Source: a virus (Duplodnaviria; Caudoviricetes). From it: a stretch of DNA of 64,000 bases. The stretch is from IMG/VR virus record IMGVR_UViG_3300049988_000286, positions 32,001 through 96,000 of that record. One strand, 5' to 3'. The notes beneath the pieces were generated by a model. The model saw nothing but the letters and a program-made list of their open reading frames with translations. It was not told where the DNA came from and did not search any database. Made by a program: the position numbers and the translations under genes. Positions 20,186 through 27,514 of this stretch are shown in pieces (position 1 is the stretch's first letter; every line of letters begins with the position of its first letter).

Positions 20186-20262
20186 AGCGCTGTGTCCAGA
20201 GTGGTTATGGACTCTCCCCGCAAGGGAGAGATACGTGGGTTCGATTCCTCCCAGCGCTGCCA
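20186..20262 (+). tRNA. tRNA, GCA anticodon (Cys), atypical C33 and G73
   Basis: AGCGCTG/CAGCGCT-G-CCA; TCTCC-CCGCAAG-GGAGA. Confidence 0.7.
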
Positions 20263-20273
20263 ATCTATTTTGA

Positions 20274-20364
20274 GTGTCGGTGGCGGAGTCCGGCCGAACG
20301 CACAAGACTGCAAATCTTGCGAGGGCTTCCCTCCACGCCGGTTCAAATCCGGCCCGATGCTCCA
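20274..20364 (+). tRNA. tRNA-Cys(GCA) with long variable arm
   Basis: CAAGA-CTGCAAA-TCTTG, GAGGG-CTT-CCCTC V-arm, U73, CCA. Confidence 0.85.
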
Positions 20365-20374
20365 TAAATAGAAG

Positions 20375-20926
20375 ATGCGAGACATCATCGCGCTGATCGA
20401 AAGCGCTACCCTTCCGTTCAATCTCAACGACCAATTTGTGGCCAAAGTGCAAGCATACTTGCACGAGCATCTCGGTGATTGGGCCGATGATTTCCCTGAT
20501 CTCAAGCTGGCGATTATGCAAGCGTGGCAGTTGATCCACGATGAAGGCGTGCCAGACAATGGTGTGATCGAGGTTTATCGCGAGGAACTTCGTCCAAGTG
20601 AGCAGATCGCCAACCACAACTACGGCACCCTCGGTGCTTGCTGGTCGTGGGATGCCAATGGGGCGGGAACATGCCACCATGAAAACGCATATGACGAGCA
20701 CGGCCGGGAAAATGTCGAGGCCATTGTGTTCATCGGCGAGGTCTCGCTCTCCGATGTCGAATGGGTTCAGACCATCGCGAAGAATCTCGTGCTCAAGAAC
20801 GAGCGCGAGATCAACATCCGGGACGGCGCACGGGTGAGGCTTGAGGGTCAGTATAAGGCTGGCGCTCGGGGCTACGAACCGCTAGCCGATCAGGTATATC
20901 AAATCAGCAATATCAACGACTTCTAA
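20375..20926 (+). CDS. ADP-ribosyltransferase-like late protein
   Basis: MRDIIALIES; VYR...LGACWSW...NERE; 4 nt after TAAATA. Confidence 0.45.
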   Translation: MRDIIALIESATLPFNLNDQFVAKVQAYLHEHLGDWADDFPDLKLAIMQAWQLIHDEGVPDNGVIEVYREELRPSEQIANHNYGTLGACWSWDANGAGTCHHENAYDEHGRENVEAIVFIGEVSLSDVEWVQTIAKNLVLKNEREINIRDGARVRLEGQYKAGARGYEPLADQVYQISNINDF

Positions 20927-20927
20927 C

Positions 20928-20953
20928 GGAACGAACTCTCCTTGCCGTAAGTT
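20928..20953 (+). promoter_or_regulatory. possible EcfG/SigT (general stress) promoter
   Basis: GGAAC-N17-AGTT directly upstream of the LOV kinase. Confidence 0.35.
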
Positions 20954-20980
20954 AGATGGTCTGCTACCGGGGTAGAAATT

Positions 20981-22570
20981 TTGCGGGATTCGCGAGTGCC
21001 TGATAATCGGAACATCGACAGCCGTGGTAACTTGGATCACACGGAAGCGCAAGGCTTCGATAGCGATCACAGCGACATCTTCTATGCGGCAATCCAGCGT
21101 TCGCGGATGCCGATGATCCTCACCGATCCTAATCGTCCAGACAACCCGATCGTGTTTTTCAACACGGCCTTCTCGACGCTCACTGGATACCCCCCGGAGG
21201 AAATCCTAAATCGCAACTGTCGCTTCCTGCAAGGGGAGGAGACGGATCGCGATAAGGTCGCCTATGTGGGTCAACAGATTCTCGCGGAGAAGGACTGCTC
21301 GGTAGAGTTGCTCAACTACCGCAAGGACGGCACCTCGTTCTGGAACGCGCTCTTCATCTCGCCCGTCTATGACAATGACGGTAAGCTCGCGTATTACTTC
21401 GCATCCCAGCTTGACGTTACCCGGCGGGTGAAGAGCGAGGAGTTGCTTCGCCAGACCCAGAAGATCGAGACGCTGGGACAACTCACCGGCGGCATCGCGC
21501 ACGACTTCAACAACATGTTGACCGTGGTGATGGGCAACCTCAACATGGCGCAGAACGCCATGGAGGTGAAGCAACCCGATCGCGTATCAGTTTACCTCGA
21601 TCGCGCCATGGCGGCAGCAAAGTCGAGCGATCGTCTCACCCAGCAGCTTCTCTCCTTCGCGCGCAAGCAGCGGATGACGACGGAGCGTCTCGATCTCAAC
21701 GAGGTGGTGCGTCAGGTGCAGACGATGTTCGAGCGCGTGCTCACCACGGGCATCTACGTCTCCGCCGAACTCACCAGTGATCCGTGGATGGTTTCCCTCG
21801 ATCCCAGCCACGCACAGAGCGCTTTCCTCAACGTGCTCCTCAACGCTCGCGATGCCATCCCGGCGACCGGGGGCTCGATCAAGCTACGGACGCGTAATCG
21901 CATCGTCGATGCCGAAAATCCCTTCTACGACCTCGCAGAGGGTGCGTATGTGGAACTCTCGATCGAGGATACCGGGTCGGGCATGTCGGAGGAAACGAAG
22001 ATGCGCGTCTTCGAACCTTTCTTCACCACCAAGGGTGTGGGTAAGGGCACCGGCATGGGGCTCGCCATGGTGCATGGCTTTGCCGACCAGTCCAACGCCA
22101 CCATCATCATCGAGAGCACCGAGGGCGTGGGGACAACGATCTCCTTCATCTTCCCCACCGATGACGCTCACGCCGTAGAGAGGGACCGCCACAGCGGATC
22201 ACGCATCCTTGTCGTGGAGGACAACCAGATGCTCCGCGAGACGACGGTGGATTTCCTGCGGATGCACGGATTCACAGTGCGGGATGTCGATAGCGCCGAC
22301 AGCGCGATCAAGGCACTCGACGGCGGATACGTCCCCGACATCCTGTTCAGCGATGTCGTCATGCCGGGGACGATGGACGGCTTCGGTCTCGGCCGCGTTG
22401 TCCGTGACCGCTTCCCCAGCGTTCACGTGCTGCTCAACAGCGGGTGGACAGATGGTCGCGAGAACAACGACGAGTTCGAGGTGATGAGCAAGCCGTACGA
22501 TCTCACCAAGCTGGCAAGCGTGTTGACGCGCATGAGCGATCTCGATCGCGACAAAGCGCACGAGGGCTAG
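20981..22570 (+). CDS. LOV-domain hybrid histidine kinase (LOV-HisKA-HATPase-REC)
   Basis: NRNCRFLQG LOV motif; GGIAHDFNN H-box; NARDA, DTGSGM, FFTTK, GTGMGL; LFSDVVMPG and KPY receiver. Confidence 0.92.
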   Translation: MRDSRVPDNRNIDSRGNLDHTEAQGFDSDHSDIFYAAIQRSRMPMILTDPNRPDNPIVFFNTAFSTLTGYPPEEILNRNCRFLQGEETDRDKVAYVGQQILAEKDCSVELLNYRKDGTSFWNALFISPVYDNDGKLAYYFASQLDVTRRVKSEELLRQTQKIETLGQLTGGIAHDFNNMLTVVMGNLNMAQNAMEVKQPDRVSVYLDRAMAAAKSSDRLTQQLLSFARKQRMTTERLDLNEVVRQVQTMFERVLTTGIYVSAELTSDPWMVSLDPSHAQSAFLNVLLNARDAIPATGGSIKLRTRNRIVDAENPFYDLAEGAYVELSIEDTGSGMSEETKMRVFEPFFTTKGVGKGTGMGLAMVHGFADQSNATIIIESTEGVGTTISFIFPTDDAHAVERDRHSGSRILVVEDNQMLRETTVDFLRMHGFTVRDVDSADSAIKALDGGYVPDILFSDVVMPGTMDGFGLGRVVRDRFPSVHVLLNSGWTDGRENNDEFEVMSKPYDLTKLASVLTRMSDLDRDKAHEG

Positions 22571-22573
22571 GCG

Positions 22574-22936
22574 TTACCCGAACTTGGCGGAAAGGCGCTC
22601 GAAATCTGCGCGTTCCCGTTGTTCGCGCAGAGCGTCACGCTCCGCCTTCGCGCACGCGCGCGCGATCATCTCATCGTCGGTTTCCTCGCGGACGCCATAG
22701 ACGTAGATGTATTGTTCATCCCCGTAACCGTCACCGTGTTTGCGAAACTCGAAGGACTTATACTCGGGATAGTCTTCCTCGATGCGCGCCATATTGTCGC
22801 GGACCGAATCGAAAGAGTTCTCGACGTCGAACGACATTAGCTTGATGCTCACGACGCCGCGCGTCTCTGCGAGTTCGACGATCCTCGCCACGACTGCGCC
22901 GCGAATGTCGGCGATCTGCTGTTCGGTCAGGGGCAT
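22574..22936 (-). CDS. hypothetical protein
   Basis: GAGGAG SD; TTGACA-N16-TATCAG upstream (22955-22982). Confidence 0.75.
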   Translation of the reverse strand: MPLTEQQIADIRGAVVARIVELAETRGVVSIKLMSFDVENSFDSVRDNMARIEEDYPEYKSFEFRKHGDGYGDEQYIYVYGVREETDDEMIARACAKAERDALREQRERADFERLSAKFG

Positions 22937-22992
22937 GATGTTCTCCTCACGGCCCTGATAAACAATTACGACGAACTGTCAAGCTGGAACTA

Positions 22993-23026
22993 TTATGGCC
23001 CCTCATGTTGCCATGAGGGGCCATAA
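22993..23026 (-). terminator. 15-bp perfect hairpin closing the long non-coding region
   Basis: TTATGGCCCCTCATG-GCAA-CATGAGGGGCCATAA on the minus strand. Confidence 0.6.
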
Positions 23027-25067
23027 ATCCAGTAGCGTGAGACTATCACCACTGGTGCTTGATCGCACAGTCATTATCCCGTTGCCGAAGCGCGGGGTTC
23101 TACTGCTTGTCCTCGACCGAAGTCGCCACCAAGCGTCACCACACCAATCGTTACCCACTGGTGCCGTGGGGCATCCACAAACGATATCGGCAATCTTACG
23201 ACTACCGAACACCAGACCATGTGCTGATCTCGTGCTCCTCATTCTCCAAAGAGTGAGGAATTAGGTGACTCCCGTTCGTGGAGAACGGCTACTTCTGCAT
23301 TGCTCGCCCGCCGGTCCTATTTCGTCACCCGGAGGCGACATTCCTATAACCGTCGTGCGCGTCATCGGACGCTGCCTCTATCTCGGCTCCGACTTGCGTC
23401 GGAATACCTTCTCGCCCTCTATCAGCGGTTGCTCGCTGATCAATCCTTCGGACGACGTGGCTCCGTCACCCTCTGGACTGCCGATCCCACCCTTGTATGC
23501 CTACTCGGGCGCTTGGAGGAGCGCAGCGATGCTACACTCCGATCCGCGACTCGCGTCGCTGATTGACCGACTACTGGTTGACCGACTTGTGGGCGTATAA
23601 AGCGACAAGGAGCGGATGCTTATCCCCGACTTCCACTGACCTGTTTCTCCCGCGAGCGGGCATCGAGCCAGTGATTACTTCCCTTGTATCTACGCCGTCG
23701 AGGTCTGTTCCCCCTGACTTGCGTCAACAGAAACTCCCTCACGGGTGGTCCCAGCTTGCATAGATGAACCCCTGTGGCGTGACCCACACAGGCCCAAGGC
23801 TATGACCCCTGCCTTGGCTTACCAGCGGTTACCCGCTCGTTGCTCATTAGACTGCGCTACACCGCAGTATCGCGATCAAGCATCACCTGATCTCCACCCA
23901 ACACTTGCCGGGCTTCACAGACCTTGCGAGAGGCTGATTGCGGATTTTCCAGAGATACCGGCGAGATGGACACGATCCTAGAACCGCATCAGACAATTCG
24001 CCGGTATCCCTGCGGAACCGACTTTCATCGATCCCGATCTTTCAAGCACGGTTTGAGCGCTCCCGCGAAGGCGCGTTCGGACTTCCTCAACCGCGAGGTA
24101 TTGGAAGGCTTGGCAGTTTTCACCGCCGTTCACCGTGCTTGTGGTATCCGAGTAAACCCGGAGACCAAATTTCCGGAGAGGATTTTGCTACCGCAGCCCC
24201 GCAAAGGATTACAGCAGAATCGGCCTCTCCGTGGACCGGACCGAAGTCCTGCCCAAGATTTCAGGAGTTCTCATCTCAACTTCGGCGATGAAGGCATGGT
24301 GACCCGGCCATCGTCCTCGGTAGTAAGTCACTCCTGCGGTCCCGACCGAAGTCTGAACCGATTTTCCAAGGAGCCGCCTCGGTCATCCTGCGCTACATCG
24401 TATGACCGATATCCGCTCTGGCTGTCCTGCGCACTCCTTGTGGTAGATGTTCTCAACCTAAGTCTCGATCACCACCAATCTCGTGAGCGTTTGTTCCGCT
24501 CTGGAACCCTGATACTCAAACCCGAGGGTGAGCGTCAAGAAGTTTTTTCGAAGGGGATGACCAACCGAAGTTGATCATCCCGCTTCTGGATCAAGGCCTA
24601 GACCTCAACCCGTCTTTCGAGGTTGGTTTAGCGACACCGCCGTTTTCACGGCTGTGATCCAACCTCGCGGCGACAAGGGGTGAACCCAACGAACCACCCT
24701 TGCAACCGAACTTCCGGAGGGGACGGGGAGGTGAGCGTGCTTTTCAGCATATTCTCCGCCTTCCGGGCGAGGGTCGGCGGACCCCTCCGTGGCGCGACGC
24801 CGAAGCATCGTTGCCGTTTTCCGAGGATGACCAGCATGATACCGAAGTATCTTACCCGCCATCCTCGCGGTCAGGGATTTTCGACTCTGCTCGAAAGCAT
24901 CATCTACGGTCCCTTGACCGATCTCGTAAACTGATTGCCCCGAAGGGCTGTCAAAGAGCAGTATCGACCGAGGCCTATACTTCGGAAGCATCTCGGTAGT
25001 GAGTCATTCAACTCTCTACTTCAATCTAGGTTCCGCCGTTTGTCTTCGGCAGCGCCTCGTTTCCGTT
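22993..25067 (-). ncRNA. candidate giant structured non-coding RNA (or RNA cluster), ~2.1 kb
   Basis: no credible CDS; at least 8 C(UUCG)G and several GNRA hairpins on the minus strand; bounded by promoter and terminal hairpin. Confidence 0.7.
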
Positions 25068-25073
25068 GATCCG

Positions 25074-25103
25074 TCTATAGGGGTGAGGCTTTCGACCTGT
25101 CCA
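25074..25103 (-). promoter_or_regulatory. sigma70-like promoter facing the non-coding region
   Basis: A-rich upstream, TGGACA-N18-TATAGA on the minus strand. Confidence 0.5.
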
Positions 25104-25228
25104 GCACTTTTTTCACAGCCGTGCATTTTTTTCGTCATCACCCTATCGCGCAATCGAACTTCGGTGTTGCGATCCAGACGTGTAATTGATACCCTCGGGG
25201 TTGAAATCTTTTGGAGAACCAAACTCAA

Positions 25229-25696
25229 ATGAAGAAACATCTGTTCGGCGCGGTGCTGGCAAGTATCGCGCTCGTTCTTCCCGCCACGGCGCAGCCTTTG
25301 ACTCGCGAGCAACTCGGCTACCGCGTCGGCGTCACCCAAGTCGTCGATGGCGATACCCTGACCCTCGATGCACGATCGTGGTCCCCCTTCCCCAACCTCT
25401 CGTGGAAGGTACGCGTGCGCGGGATCGACACGCCGGAGAAGCGCAGCCAGTGCGTGGCGGAGCGTGAGGCAGCGGTTCGGGCAACCCGATACACCAAGAC
25501 CTTGATCGAGCGTGCGGGCAATCAGGTTTACATTCAGGAACCTCGTCATGACAAATATGGCGGACGTTTCCTCGGCGTGATCATTCTCCCCAATGGGGTC
25601 TCGCTCGCCGACACATTGATTCGCAGCGGTTACGCCCGCCCCTATAACGGCGGACAGCGCCGTCCGTGGTGCGTGTTCGGTCAGTATCGTCCATAA
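25229..25696 (+). CDS. thermonuclease (SNase) family protein with signal peptide
   Basis: VVDGDT, RVRGIDTPE, DKYGGRFLG, GYARPY. Confidence 0.9.
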   Translation: MKKHLFGAVLASIALVLPATAQPLTREQLGYRVGVTQVVDGDTLTLDARSWSPFPNLSWKVRVRGIDTPEKRSQCVAEREAAVRATRYTKTLIERAGNQVYIQEPRHDKYGGRFLGVIILPNGVSLADTLIRSGYARPYNGGQRRPWCVFGQYRP

Positions 25697-25708
25697 AAGG
25701 ATTGCGTC

Positions 25709-26272
25709 GTGGTGGTGACAAGTACGAGCACGTGGTCGGTGGTGATGCACAACACCAGTAAGGTGGCTCCGCCGCCATACGTCCACACGGTCGAGCGTGA
25801 TGGTCTGCGCGCCATGCGGCTCACTTGGTGGCGCATTAGAGGCTACAAGAACGACATCAACCCCGGTGTTGATGCCCGATATGAGCGTCGGGGATGGCTT
25901 GGTCTCACCGCCACGAACATGAGCGACCACGAATTCCGCGAGATCAGAAAGTGGTTCCGCGAGCGCGAGGGCGCGTGGGTATCGAAGAGGATCGGGGATT
26001 GTGACGAACCCCATATCCGCGAGATGATCGGCGAGTATGAGGATCACTGCGTGACGATGTGGTTCGCAACCGAGGCTCTCCTTGATGCCTTTGTCGAGTT
26101 CCTCAAGGCGTTTCCCGTCCGCGACACCGCCCTCCTGATCTCGCGCTCGGCTGACGTGCGCCACCTCATTACCGGAACCAATTTCCGGATCATCCGAGGC
26201 CGGGATCACGCGCTGCTCGCCATCACCGATGAAGTCGATGATACCTCTCGTATGCTGTTGCGCCTGATCTAG
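25709..26272 (+). CDS. hypothetical protein with paralog-family-like motifs
   Basis: KWFREREG; DDTSRMLLRLI. Confidence 0.6.
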   Translation: MVVTSTSTWSVVMHNTSKVAPPPYVHTVERDGLRAMRLTWWRIRGYKNDINPGVDARYERRGWLGLTATNMSDHEFREIRKWFREREGAWVSKRIGDCDEPHIREMIGEYEDHCVTMWFATEALLDAFVEFLKAFPVRDTALLISRSADVRHLITGTNFRIIRGRDHALLAITDEVDDTSRMLLRLI

Positions 26273-26487
26273 TCCCAGAGATCAGCGAGGGCATTCACTG
26301 CCTCCATGACAACCGCGAAAGCGAGCCCGGCGACTACTGCACCGATGACAGTCACGATCACGCCGATCCAGAACAGGATAAGGAGCGGGATCGTGATTGG
26401 TGACAAACAGAGAAAGAAGCGGCGAAGCCAGCGCGGCCAAGTCGCCGGTGAGGCGATGTCGAAGATTTGGTTGAGGAAGTCGATCAT
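26269..26487 (-). CDS. small membrane protein
   Basis: long hydrophobic segment. Confidence 0.6.
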   Translation of the reverse strand: MIDFLNQIFDIASPATWPRWLRRFFLCLSPITIPLLILFWIGVIVTVIGAVVAGLAFAVVMEAVNALADLWD

Positions 26488-26511
26488 CGCTCCTCATACC
26501 ATGACGAGCGC

Positions 26512-26937
26512 CTAGCCGGTATATTCCCGACAACGCATCCGGATCATCGCCATGTCTTCGGCATCGGGCGTGGTGATATAGAGCGAGTAAGGTGACCTGA
26601 TCGCAGTCATTGGTGTGAGCAACGACTCATCCAACCAGCGCTTCAAATGGGGTTCTGCCGAGACGATTATTTCATGACCGAGATGCCAACGAGGGTTGCG
26701 GATGAGGGGGAAGATGGTGCGCAGCGTGCTGACCGCCAAACGGAAACCGTTCTCATCGTCGGAATGTCCAATCGGTTCATCGAACTCATAGAAGATCATC
26801 GACTTGTCGGGAACGCCCATATCGAGGCGTCCGATTGCATGACCACCGACTGGTGCTGGTTGGCTCTCGAAGGTGAAACGAATATAACCGTCGAGGAAGA
26901 TTTCACCCGGCCACCAGCGATGTTTTACTTGACCCAT
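26512..26937 (-). CDS. hypothetical protein ending in paralog-family motif
   Basis: RWLDES...DAEDMAMIRMR. Confidence 0.6.
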   Translation of the reverse strand: MGQVKHRWWPGEIFLDGYIRFTFESQPAPVGGHAIGRLDMGVPDKSMIFYEFDEPIGHSDDENGFRLAVSTLRTIFPLIRNPRWHLGHEIIVSAEPHLKRWLDESLLTPMTAIRSPYSLYITTPDAEDMAMIRMRCREYTG

Positions 26938-26971
26938 AGCACCTAATCGTTTAGTCAATGGCTTGGAGATC

Positions 26972-27514
26972 ATGATGTCATATTCGGGCTGGAAAATCAA
27001 CGAGCAGGATCGCGCCGCCCTGCTGGCCGCGTTTCCGCCCCGGTACCCCGATGTTATGGCGCATCACGTCACCCTGCGTCGTGGCGACAAATCGGTTCCT
27101 GATTTCGCGCGCTTCGCCGTTGTGGGTCATGTCGATGATGGTCTGGGTTGCGAGGCGCTGATCGTTGCCCGCGACGGCATGACCGAGAACGGATCGCGGA
27201 CCTTCCACGTCACTTGGTCGATCGATCGCGAGGCGGGACGCAAGCCCGTGCACAGCAACGATGTGATCGCCGGGGGGTGGGAAGCCGTTGAGGCTCGGTC
27301 GTTCGAAGCTACGCCGTTCCGAGTGGATCACGATCGCGTCGAGCATTTTCACACCGATGAATCGGCTGCGAGATCGCGCTGCCGCGCCGAAGGCATGGAC
27401 CCCGATTTCGTTGGTGAGAAGGGATATGAGAACTGGCGCATGTTCACCGATGCGGCGCGAGCACAAACGCGGGCGTTCCTGCGCGCCACCGAAGAAATGA
27501 TTCGTGACCGATAG
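26972..27514 (+). CDS. 2H phosphoesterase-like protein
   Basis: AHHVTL and FHVTW HxT motifs. Confidence 0.6.
   Translation: MMSYSGWKINEQDRAALLAAFPPRYPDVMAHHVTLRRGDKSVPDFARFAVVGHVDDGLGCEALIVARDGMTENGSRTFHVTWSIDREAGRKPVHSNDVIAGGWEAVEARSFEATPFRVDHDRVEHFHTDESAARSRCRAEGMDPDFVGEKGYENWRMFTDAARAQTRAFLRATEEMIRDR

Follow-up and report, generated by a model that had tools for sequence, protein, structure and literature searches.

The GOLLD RNA family (Rfam RF02032) was reportedly described by Weinberg et al. in 2009. Its members are often longer than 800 nt, reside in phages and prophages near tRNA islands, increase in expression during lysis, and consist of a conserved 3′ region, a variable 5′ region, and a linker that sometimes contains a tRNA (PMC12286853). 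In the cryo-EM structure of the 833-nt env-38 GOLLD (Kretsch et al. 2025), the RNA forms a 14-mer cage with D7 symmetry, in which the 5′ domains are the caps, the 3′ domains are the rings, and the disordered linker lies inside; two kissing loops, L21a and L21b, each self-pairing, hold the half-shells together along with a single A-minor contact (PMC12286853). ROOL (RF03087) is likewise a large, ornate phage RNA that lies near tRNA genes and forms RNA-only cages.

Here, we analyze a 64,000-nt stretch of DNA (the window), which comprises bases 32001 to 96000 of a 499,572-bp IMG/VR virus record rated complete by CheckV. A gap between two genes of this window very probably carries two tandem minus-strand RNA genes: a divergent GOLLD downstream and a separate, unclassified, structured RNA-like unit (unit U) upstream. 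The locus resembles described GOLLD RNAs in being phage borne, in lying near tRNA genes, and in being present as RNA in environmental samples. Its 3′ domain matches the GOLLD model along its whole length and includes the CUAAU hairpin, the terminal GUAGUCUCA hairpin, and the long-range helix; the locus also has a variable linker (tRNA bearing in three related lineages) and a less conserved 5′ domain. It differs in that the window copy reaches 30.9 bits where the threshold is 150, its linker is without a tRNA call, and its two-hairpin subdomain (which would be P21a/b, source of the half-shell-joining kissing loops) is reduced to a simple GUAA hairpin. Whereas env-38 GOLLD measures 833 nt, the conserved core here is ~1.1 kb and the predicted transcript is ~1.5 kb, and the setting, a 499.6-kb megaphage from leaf samples, also differs from that known for GOLLD.

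Genomic setting and noncoding character of the gap

The gap spans window positions 22937 to 25228, between a minus-strand gene at 22574–22936, which encodes a 120-aa protein with no assigned function, and a plus-strand, secreted SNase-like gene at 25229–25696. Beyond these flanks lie a LOV/PAS hybrid histidine kinase gene and two tRNA-Cys genes (20186–20364); with this pair in a virus record, and with tRNA-Gln triplets near homologous loci, the locus shares the phage-encoded, tRNA-proximal position of GOLLD RNAs. The triplets lie near the GOLLD locus in related 0.5-Mb phages (L012, L016, and L017), which also carry genes for ribosomal protein S21, ClpX, ClpS, and S-adenosylmethionine decarboxylase near their topoisomerase II genes. 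A gene for a membrane protein of 72 to 75 aa adjoins the RNA locus in all lineages (the window copy is at 26269–26487), and in the window and in L068, the SNase-like gene, which has a signal-peptide-like start, sits between the membrane protein gene and the RNA (window 25229–25696; L068:6001–6707).

Between the three codon positions, GC content has a spread of 0.04 to 0.12 in ~23200–25100 (with the exception of 0.17 to 0.21 at 23000–23400), versus 0.2 to 0.46 in the flanking genes, which agrees with the claim of an earlier note on this DNA that these 2.1 kb have no ORF of protein-like composition. Minimum free energy (MFE) z-scores, computed for 200-nt windows against dinucleotide shuffles, range from about −0.5 to −6.5 (most from −2 to −5.6) on the minus strand across 22900–25100; plus-strand values are weaker, and values in the flanks are close to 0. 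Counting hairpins with stems of at least 4 bp, the gap has 7 minus-strand and 2 plus-strand UUCG hairpins (genome mean, 0.15 per kb per strand), along with 11 and 2 GNRA hairpins, respectively (genome mean, 0.8 per kb per strand), and no other 2.29-kb stretch of the 499.6-kb genome exceeds either minus-strand count. The raw count of the word CCGAAG is not unique in the genome, as a count of 8 is also reached in a coding region elsewhere. Another CTTCGG cluster, at 118 to 120 kb of the genome, was tested and dropped as coding DNA.

The gap is a real structured noncoding RNA locus on the minus strand. The earlier note had read it from that strand, and the absence of codon periodicity, the minus-strand folding, and the excess of tetraloop hairpins bear this out. 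Most of the individual UUCG and GNRA hairpins that it listed were recovered, but those at 23084–23091 and 24344–24353 fall under the 4-bp stem cutoff; a long helix that it placed at 23954–23964 with 23998–24008 was recovered as 23950–23964 with 23998–24012. Internal tandem duplication of the region was rejected, with Smith-Waterman scores being no better than those of shuffles. Three short collinear repeats (17 to 26 nt, 73 to 84% identical) lie ~536 to 541 nt apart, at 23852–24182 versus 24388–24723, and hint at an old internal duplication.

Homologous loci in related megaphages

A blastn search of the region against INPHARED phages gave no match, neighbor-based searches (with the 120-aa protein, the SNase, and topoisomerase II) gave no relatives or just unrelated small phages, and scans for the pattern CCTAATTCCTCA...TGAGGAG gave chance matches only in viral and genome contigs (nhmmer negative) and none in metagenome contigs. 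Topoisomerase II homologs led to related megaphages of 125 to 536 kb. In one of these, a 509-kb NCBI contig (L017), a 2.07-kb gene-free gap (L017:10229–12297) lies beside a homolog of the window's 72-aa membrane protein and aligns with the minus strand of the window (nhmmer E, 2e-7); all of its 6 UUCG and 8 GNRA hairpins are on the corresponding strand, and a classic terminator stands at its end. A profile of the membrane protein led to three further lineages (L068 to L073, L074/L075, and L076/L077), all of which have homologous gene-poor stretches (E of 1e-9 to 1e-170). The homolog search in related jumbo phages, earlier put forward as a check, has hence produced four lineages besides that of the window that carry a syntenic, homologous, gene-poor stretch beside the same small membrane protein gene, with compensatory changes in the shared fold. 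No homolog was within reach in a 536-kb relative (L012/L018) or in the P0007 contig (L067), and distant small-protein matches (P0128 and P0130) fell in gene-dense, unrelated loci.

A much closer relative, with 97% identity, is an 1,804-bp NCBI contig (L011) that matches window 23777–22272 without gaps. Homology ends at 23777: within L011:1–298, a divergent protein gene that is missing from this genome abuts the RNA. This junction would remove most of the GOLLD 5′ domain and could be either a rearrangement or a chimeric assembly.

A divergent GOLLD RNA in the downstream part

By homology, the larger part of the locus is a very divergent member of the phage GOLLD family and not a new class. A new class unrelated to GOLLD, as formerly supposed, does not fit with the 3′ 390 nt, which match RF02032 weakly but significantly, or with the stretch from 22993 to ~24080, which is homologous to syntenic megaphage RNAs scoring above the GOLLD threshold. 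Coverage by known Rfam models, which according to the earlier note would take away the novelty but not the RNA itself, extends to roughly half to two thirds of the locus; the upstream 0.5 to 1 kb is unclassified. In the direction of the minus strand, the locus is laid out as follows:

25074–25113, minus strand: promoter-like motif of unit U (A-tract, TGGACA, 18 nt, TATAGA), conserved in L068.

24554–25066, minus strand: upstream structured RNA-like unit U, with its start placed from the promoter motif and its end placed at a hairpin.

24509–24548, minus strand: promoter-like motif of the GOLLD unit (AAAAAACTTCTTGACG, 18 nt, TATCAG), of the same rare composite type.

24081–24502, minus strand: 5′ extension of the GOLLD transcript, common only to the L068 lineage, with a predicted transcription start.

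23421–24080, minus strand: GOLLD 5′ domain, kept in five phage lineages (alignment A2, consensus fold with compensatory pairs, and model R2).

23034–23420, minus strand: GOLLD 3′ domain, a full-length RF02032 match (model positions 1 to 416; 30.9 bits; E, 2.2e-6).

23300–23361, minus strand: 3′-domain linker, from the alignments, with no tRNA called.

23187–23208, minus strand: 9-bp GUAA hairpin replacing the GOLLD two-hairpin subdomain, from the cmscan alignment compared with L017.

22993–23026, minus strand: terminal hairpin and terminator, 15 bp with a GCAA loop, a perfect inverted repeat.

The match at 23034–23420 is the sole RF02032 match in the whole genome and surfaced only on searching 651 nt; Rfam scans over 3.2 kb of the window (at the gathering level and at E ≤ 10) returned no GOLLD match. 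RF02032 models the 3′ domain only, without the 5′ domain. Among the homologous loci, scores are 182.8 bits in L076, 166.2 bits in L017, 162.2 bits in L074, and 128.9 bits in L068, such that the first three exceed the Rfam gathering threshold of 150 bits, L068 falls below it, and the window copy falls far below it. In the cmscan alignment, the window has the conserved first long hairpin, the long-range helix (which pairs at 9 of 10 positions), and the CUAAU hairpin; the GGUAA/UAA hairpin, the AUAAU hairpin, and the terminal GUAxUCUCA hairpin are also aligned. Helices of the 3′ domain display compensatory changes across the five lineages.

Absent from the window is the two-hairpin subdomain (model ~217–281), which is present in L017, L068, L074, and L076: here, 58 model positions give way to 7 nt, which form the tip of the hairpin at 23187–23208. 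The deletion is not an assembly error, because L011 is gapless at this hairpin and no insertion or deletion is reported there in the covering contigs from sequencing runs. Judging from residue numbering and topology, the missing subdomain would be P21a/b with its kissing loops, L21a and L21b.

A linker, which in GOLLD RNAs is variable and sometimes holds a tRNA, is present. It contains a tRNA-Arg(UCU) in L017 and a tRNA-Ser(GCU) in L068; the tRNA that it contains in L076 is unusual, and no linker tRNA was called in the window (ARAGORN) or in L074. The tRNA in the L076 linker (L076:1224–1297) is given a four-base anticodon (tttt) by ARAGORN, which would mean an 8-nt anticodon loop, and scores 43.5 bits as a tRNA with Rfam. 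At the other end of the domain, the 15-bp GCAA hairpin that had been said to close the region has a counterpart in all five lineages; its stem covaries, its loop alternates between GCAA and UUCG, and a T-run follows in most.

Upstream of the 3′ domain is a less conserved 5′ domain, as in other GOLLD RNAs. Model R2, which represents the 5′-domain block of the four other lineages with the window's sequence left out, has a sole match within the 64-kb window, at 23754–23958 on the minus strand (52 bits; E, 7e-13). Alignment A2 covers ~1.1 kb in five lineages (window 22985–24080), and the window copy is 44 to 49% identical to the others. The RNAalifold consensus of the five lineages contains 261 pairs, with 88% of cells being standard pairs; compensatory changes occur at 126 of these pairs, versus 28 to 46 when pairing partners are slid and 29.5 (maximum, 44) when columns are shuffled, and the consensus energy is −189 kcal/mol in the sense orientation and −91 in the antisense. 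Of the 261 consensus pairs, 166 are standard pairs in the window copy, the outlier of the clade, versus 229 to 237 in the other lineages, although its lower count is probably in part a product of misalignment. Farther upstream, window 24444–24033 aligns with L068 (nhmmer E, 1e-9 to 1e-11), and contigs from RNA runs over the 5′ extension span 24070–24265.

Promoter-like motifs and the upstream unit

The two promoter-like motifs of the gap belong to a composite type (an A-tract, a TTGACR-like hexamer, 16 to 19 nt, and TATMNN) that occurs 3 times in the 499.6-kb genome versus 0 to 1 times in shuffles, and both point along the minus strand. L017 (TTGACT-17-TATAGT), L068, and L076 also have promoter-like sites at the corresponding position ahead of the core. 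Both sites of the gap fail a stricter standard sigma-70 scan; accordingly, the sigma70-like promoter previously placed at 25074–25103 (TGGACA-18-TATAGA) does not stand as such but survives as part of the composite motif. The third copy of the motif lies at genome positions 253258–253410 on the plus strand (window coordinate 221258, outside the window) and is followed by a stretch of ~100 nt between convergent genes, with a GC-rich hairpin and a T-run at its end, which is a candidate small RNA.

Unit U has minus-strand z-scores of −2 to −5.6 and several UUCG hairpins, and its predicted end is the 12-bp UUCG hairpin at 24554–24581, which has no U-tract. Window 25158–24785 is homologous to L068 (nhmmer E, 4e-12), and the two-sequence consensus fold of the unit with L068 has an energy of −46.9 kcal/mol, versus −26.7 ± 4.5 for shuffles, and 19 compensatory pairs, versus a shuffle mean of 12.7 (maximum, 18). 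L017, L074, and L066 have upstream units that are mutually homologous but have no detectable homology to unit U, though the cores are homologous. Assignment of unit U to the L017 type was rejected, with the model of that type (R1) matching just single hairpins in the window. Against all Rfam 15 families, ROOL included, the upstream units gave chance-level matches only (E above 0.02, far below threshold). ROOL would be the obvious candidate identity for the unclassified unit, but neither the window nor the homologous loci contain a ROOL match, even with lax filters. In L076, the core has its promoter directly upstream and is without any upstream unit. On these sequence comparisons, an unclassified upstream unit accompanies GOLLD in four of the five lineages, and the type seen in the window is common only to the L068 lineage. 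By eye, a long hairpin with a purine and a pyrimidine strand, followed by GGAAAA, recurs in the upstream units, and the same motif opens the GOLLD 5′ domain.

From the promoter-like motifs and the L076 core without an upstream unit, we infer two tandem genes, U (~25066–24554) and GOLLD (~24502–22993); the two separate transcripts and their ends, like the assembly and function considered below, are put forward at that same strength. Between one very large RNA and several tandem ones, both of which had been entertained, tandem units are probable and a single RNA is not favored. It is improbable that the gap encodes one ~2.1-kb structured RNA of a new class in which the GOLLD-like part is merely a module. 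Such an RNA would account for the structure and hairpin excess through the whole gap, for an upstream part without an Rfam family, and for the presence of upstream and downstream parts alike in the L068 lineage, and, because the hairpin at 24554–24581 is without a U-tract, one long read-through transcript is possible. It is, however, at odds with the second promoter-like motif of the same rare type at 24509–24548, with the L076 core that stands alone with its promoter directly upstream, with L017-type and window-type upstream units that have no detectable homology beside homologous cores, and with RNA-run contigs that are broken between the two parts.

Presence in RNA libraries and sequence constraint

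The locus is present as RNA in RNA libraries. The 31-mers of the region are found in 24 public runs, 10 of which are metatranscriptomes, and most are labeled phyllosphere; contigs of four runs (three metatranscriptomes and one DNA run) were compared with window 20500–27500. The three leaf metatranscriptome runs, from different studies, have contigs that are 98 to 99% identical over 23061–24265 (for example, 967 nt at 23126–24092 and 897 nt at 23076–23938), and contigs of one of these runs (X2) fall on the upstream part, at 24421–24650 and 24664–24983. No contigs of the flanking phage genes (22138–23060 and 25180–27500) occur in the three metatranscriptome runs; the DNA run covers the RNA region and the flanks alike. 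Run contigs carry neither strand nor transcript ends, and parts of the locus are not ranked by depth because there is one depth figure per contig. Window 20968–22137, the PAS and HisKA portion of the phage LOV-type histidine kinase gene, attracts many short metatranscriptome contigs of 80 to 85% identity, which derive from kinases of other organisms and not from the phage.

The locus is also under constraint, in that variants avoid paired positions and the RNA changes more slowly than the adjacent coding gene. Strain variants occupy consensus-unpaired positions in 23 of 28 cases, with 44.5% of positions being paired (binomial P = 0.003), and L011 differs from the window at 2.1% of sites in the RNA part and at 4.4% in the adjacent coding gene. 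Both results, together with folding z-scores that are strongly negative throughout and with RNA in three metatranscriptomes from which the neighboring genes are absent, make it quite improbable that the gap is a decaying, nonfunctional GOLLD remnant plus spacer DNA, even though decay would be consistent with the very low Rfam score, the loss of the tRNA and one subdomain, the smaller number of consensus pairs kept than in other lineages, and the different gene that abuts 23777 in the 97% relative, which would cut the 5′ domain. Protein-coding DNA, whether a single disrupted or recoded gene or a set of small ones, is highly improbable. Although ORFs reach 216 aa (23924–24574, plus strand) and genes of 239 and 166 aa have been called on the homologous stretches in L068 and L074, respectively, the composition has no 3-nt period, Pfam matches to the ORFs are absent, conservation tracks base pairing and not reading frames, and the same stretches match GOLLD as well as an embedded tRNA. 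The ORFs and called genes of 166 to 239 aa on GOLLD stretches (window 23924–24574, plus strand; L068:8417–9136; L074:7276–7776) are probably spurious annotations, because they have no Pfam match where tested and the window has no codon periodicity.

Proposed organization and implications

Two tandem RNA genes remain the preferred reading of the gap, against which stand the score of 30.9 versus 150 bits, the 166 of 261 pairs, the missing subdomain, and the failed sigma-70 scan. The downstream gene, from ~24502 to 22993 with a conserved core at 24080–22993, would be a highly divergent GOLLD-family RNA, made up of a clade-specific 5′ extension, a 5′ domain, a linker, and a universally conserved 3′ domain ending in the terminator hairpin; the upstream gene, ~25066–24554, would be a separate structured RNA-like unit that belongs to no known family. 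Going by the solved structure, one would expect the GOLLD RNA to fold into 5′ cap and 3′ ring domains and, as the phage grows, to self-assemble into a shell made of RNA only. Such RNA-only self-assembly, perhaps with altered cage closure, would be its most likely mode of action, and the assembly may differ from a closed 14-mer because the putative kissing-loop subdomain is lost. More specifically, the window GOLLD may not close a 14-mer and may instead form an open heptameric bowl or another assembly, with the upstream unit being a new RNA class that works with GOLLD, but we regard this elaboration as doubtful.

GOLLD RNAs are among the largest noncoding RNAs of bacteria and phages and form an RNA-only cage. 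New here is a clade of GOLLD RNAs in ~0.5-Mb megaphages that is half-missed by the standard model: because RF02032 spans the 3′ domain only, divergent GOLLDs resemble "novel giant RNAs," and gene callers put spurious ORFs on them. The copy in the window is a natural deletion variant that is expressed in leaf communities and under purifying selection, and, with both its presumed cage-closing loops and a tRNA call in its linker absent, it could already be used to test which cage parts are important.
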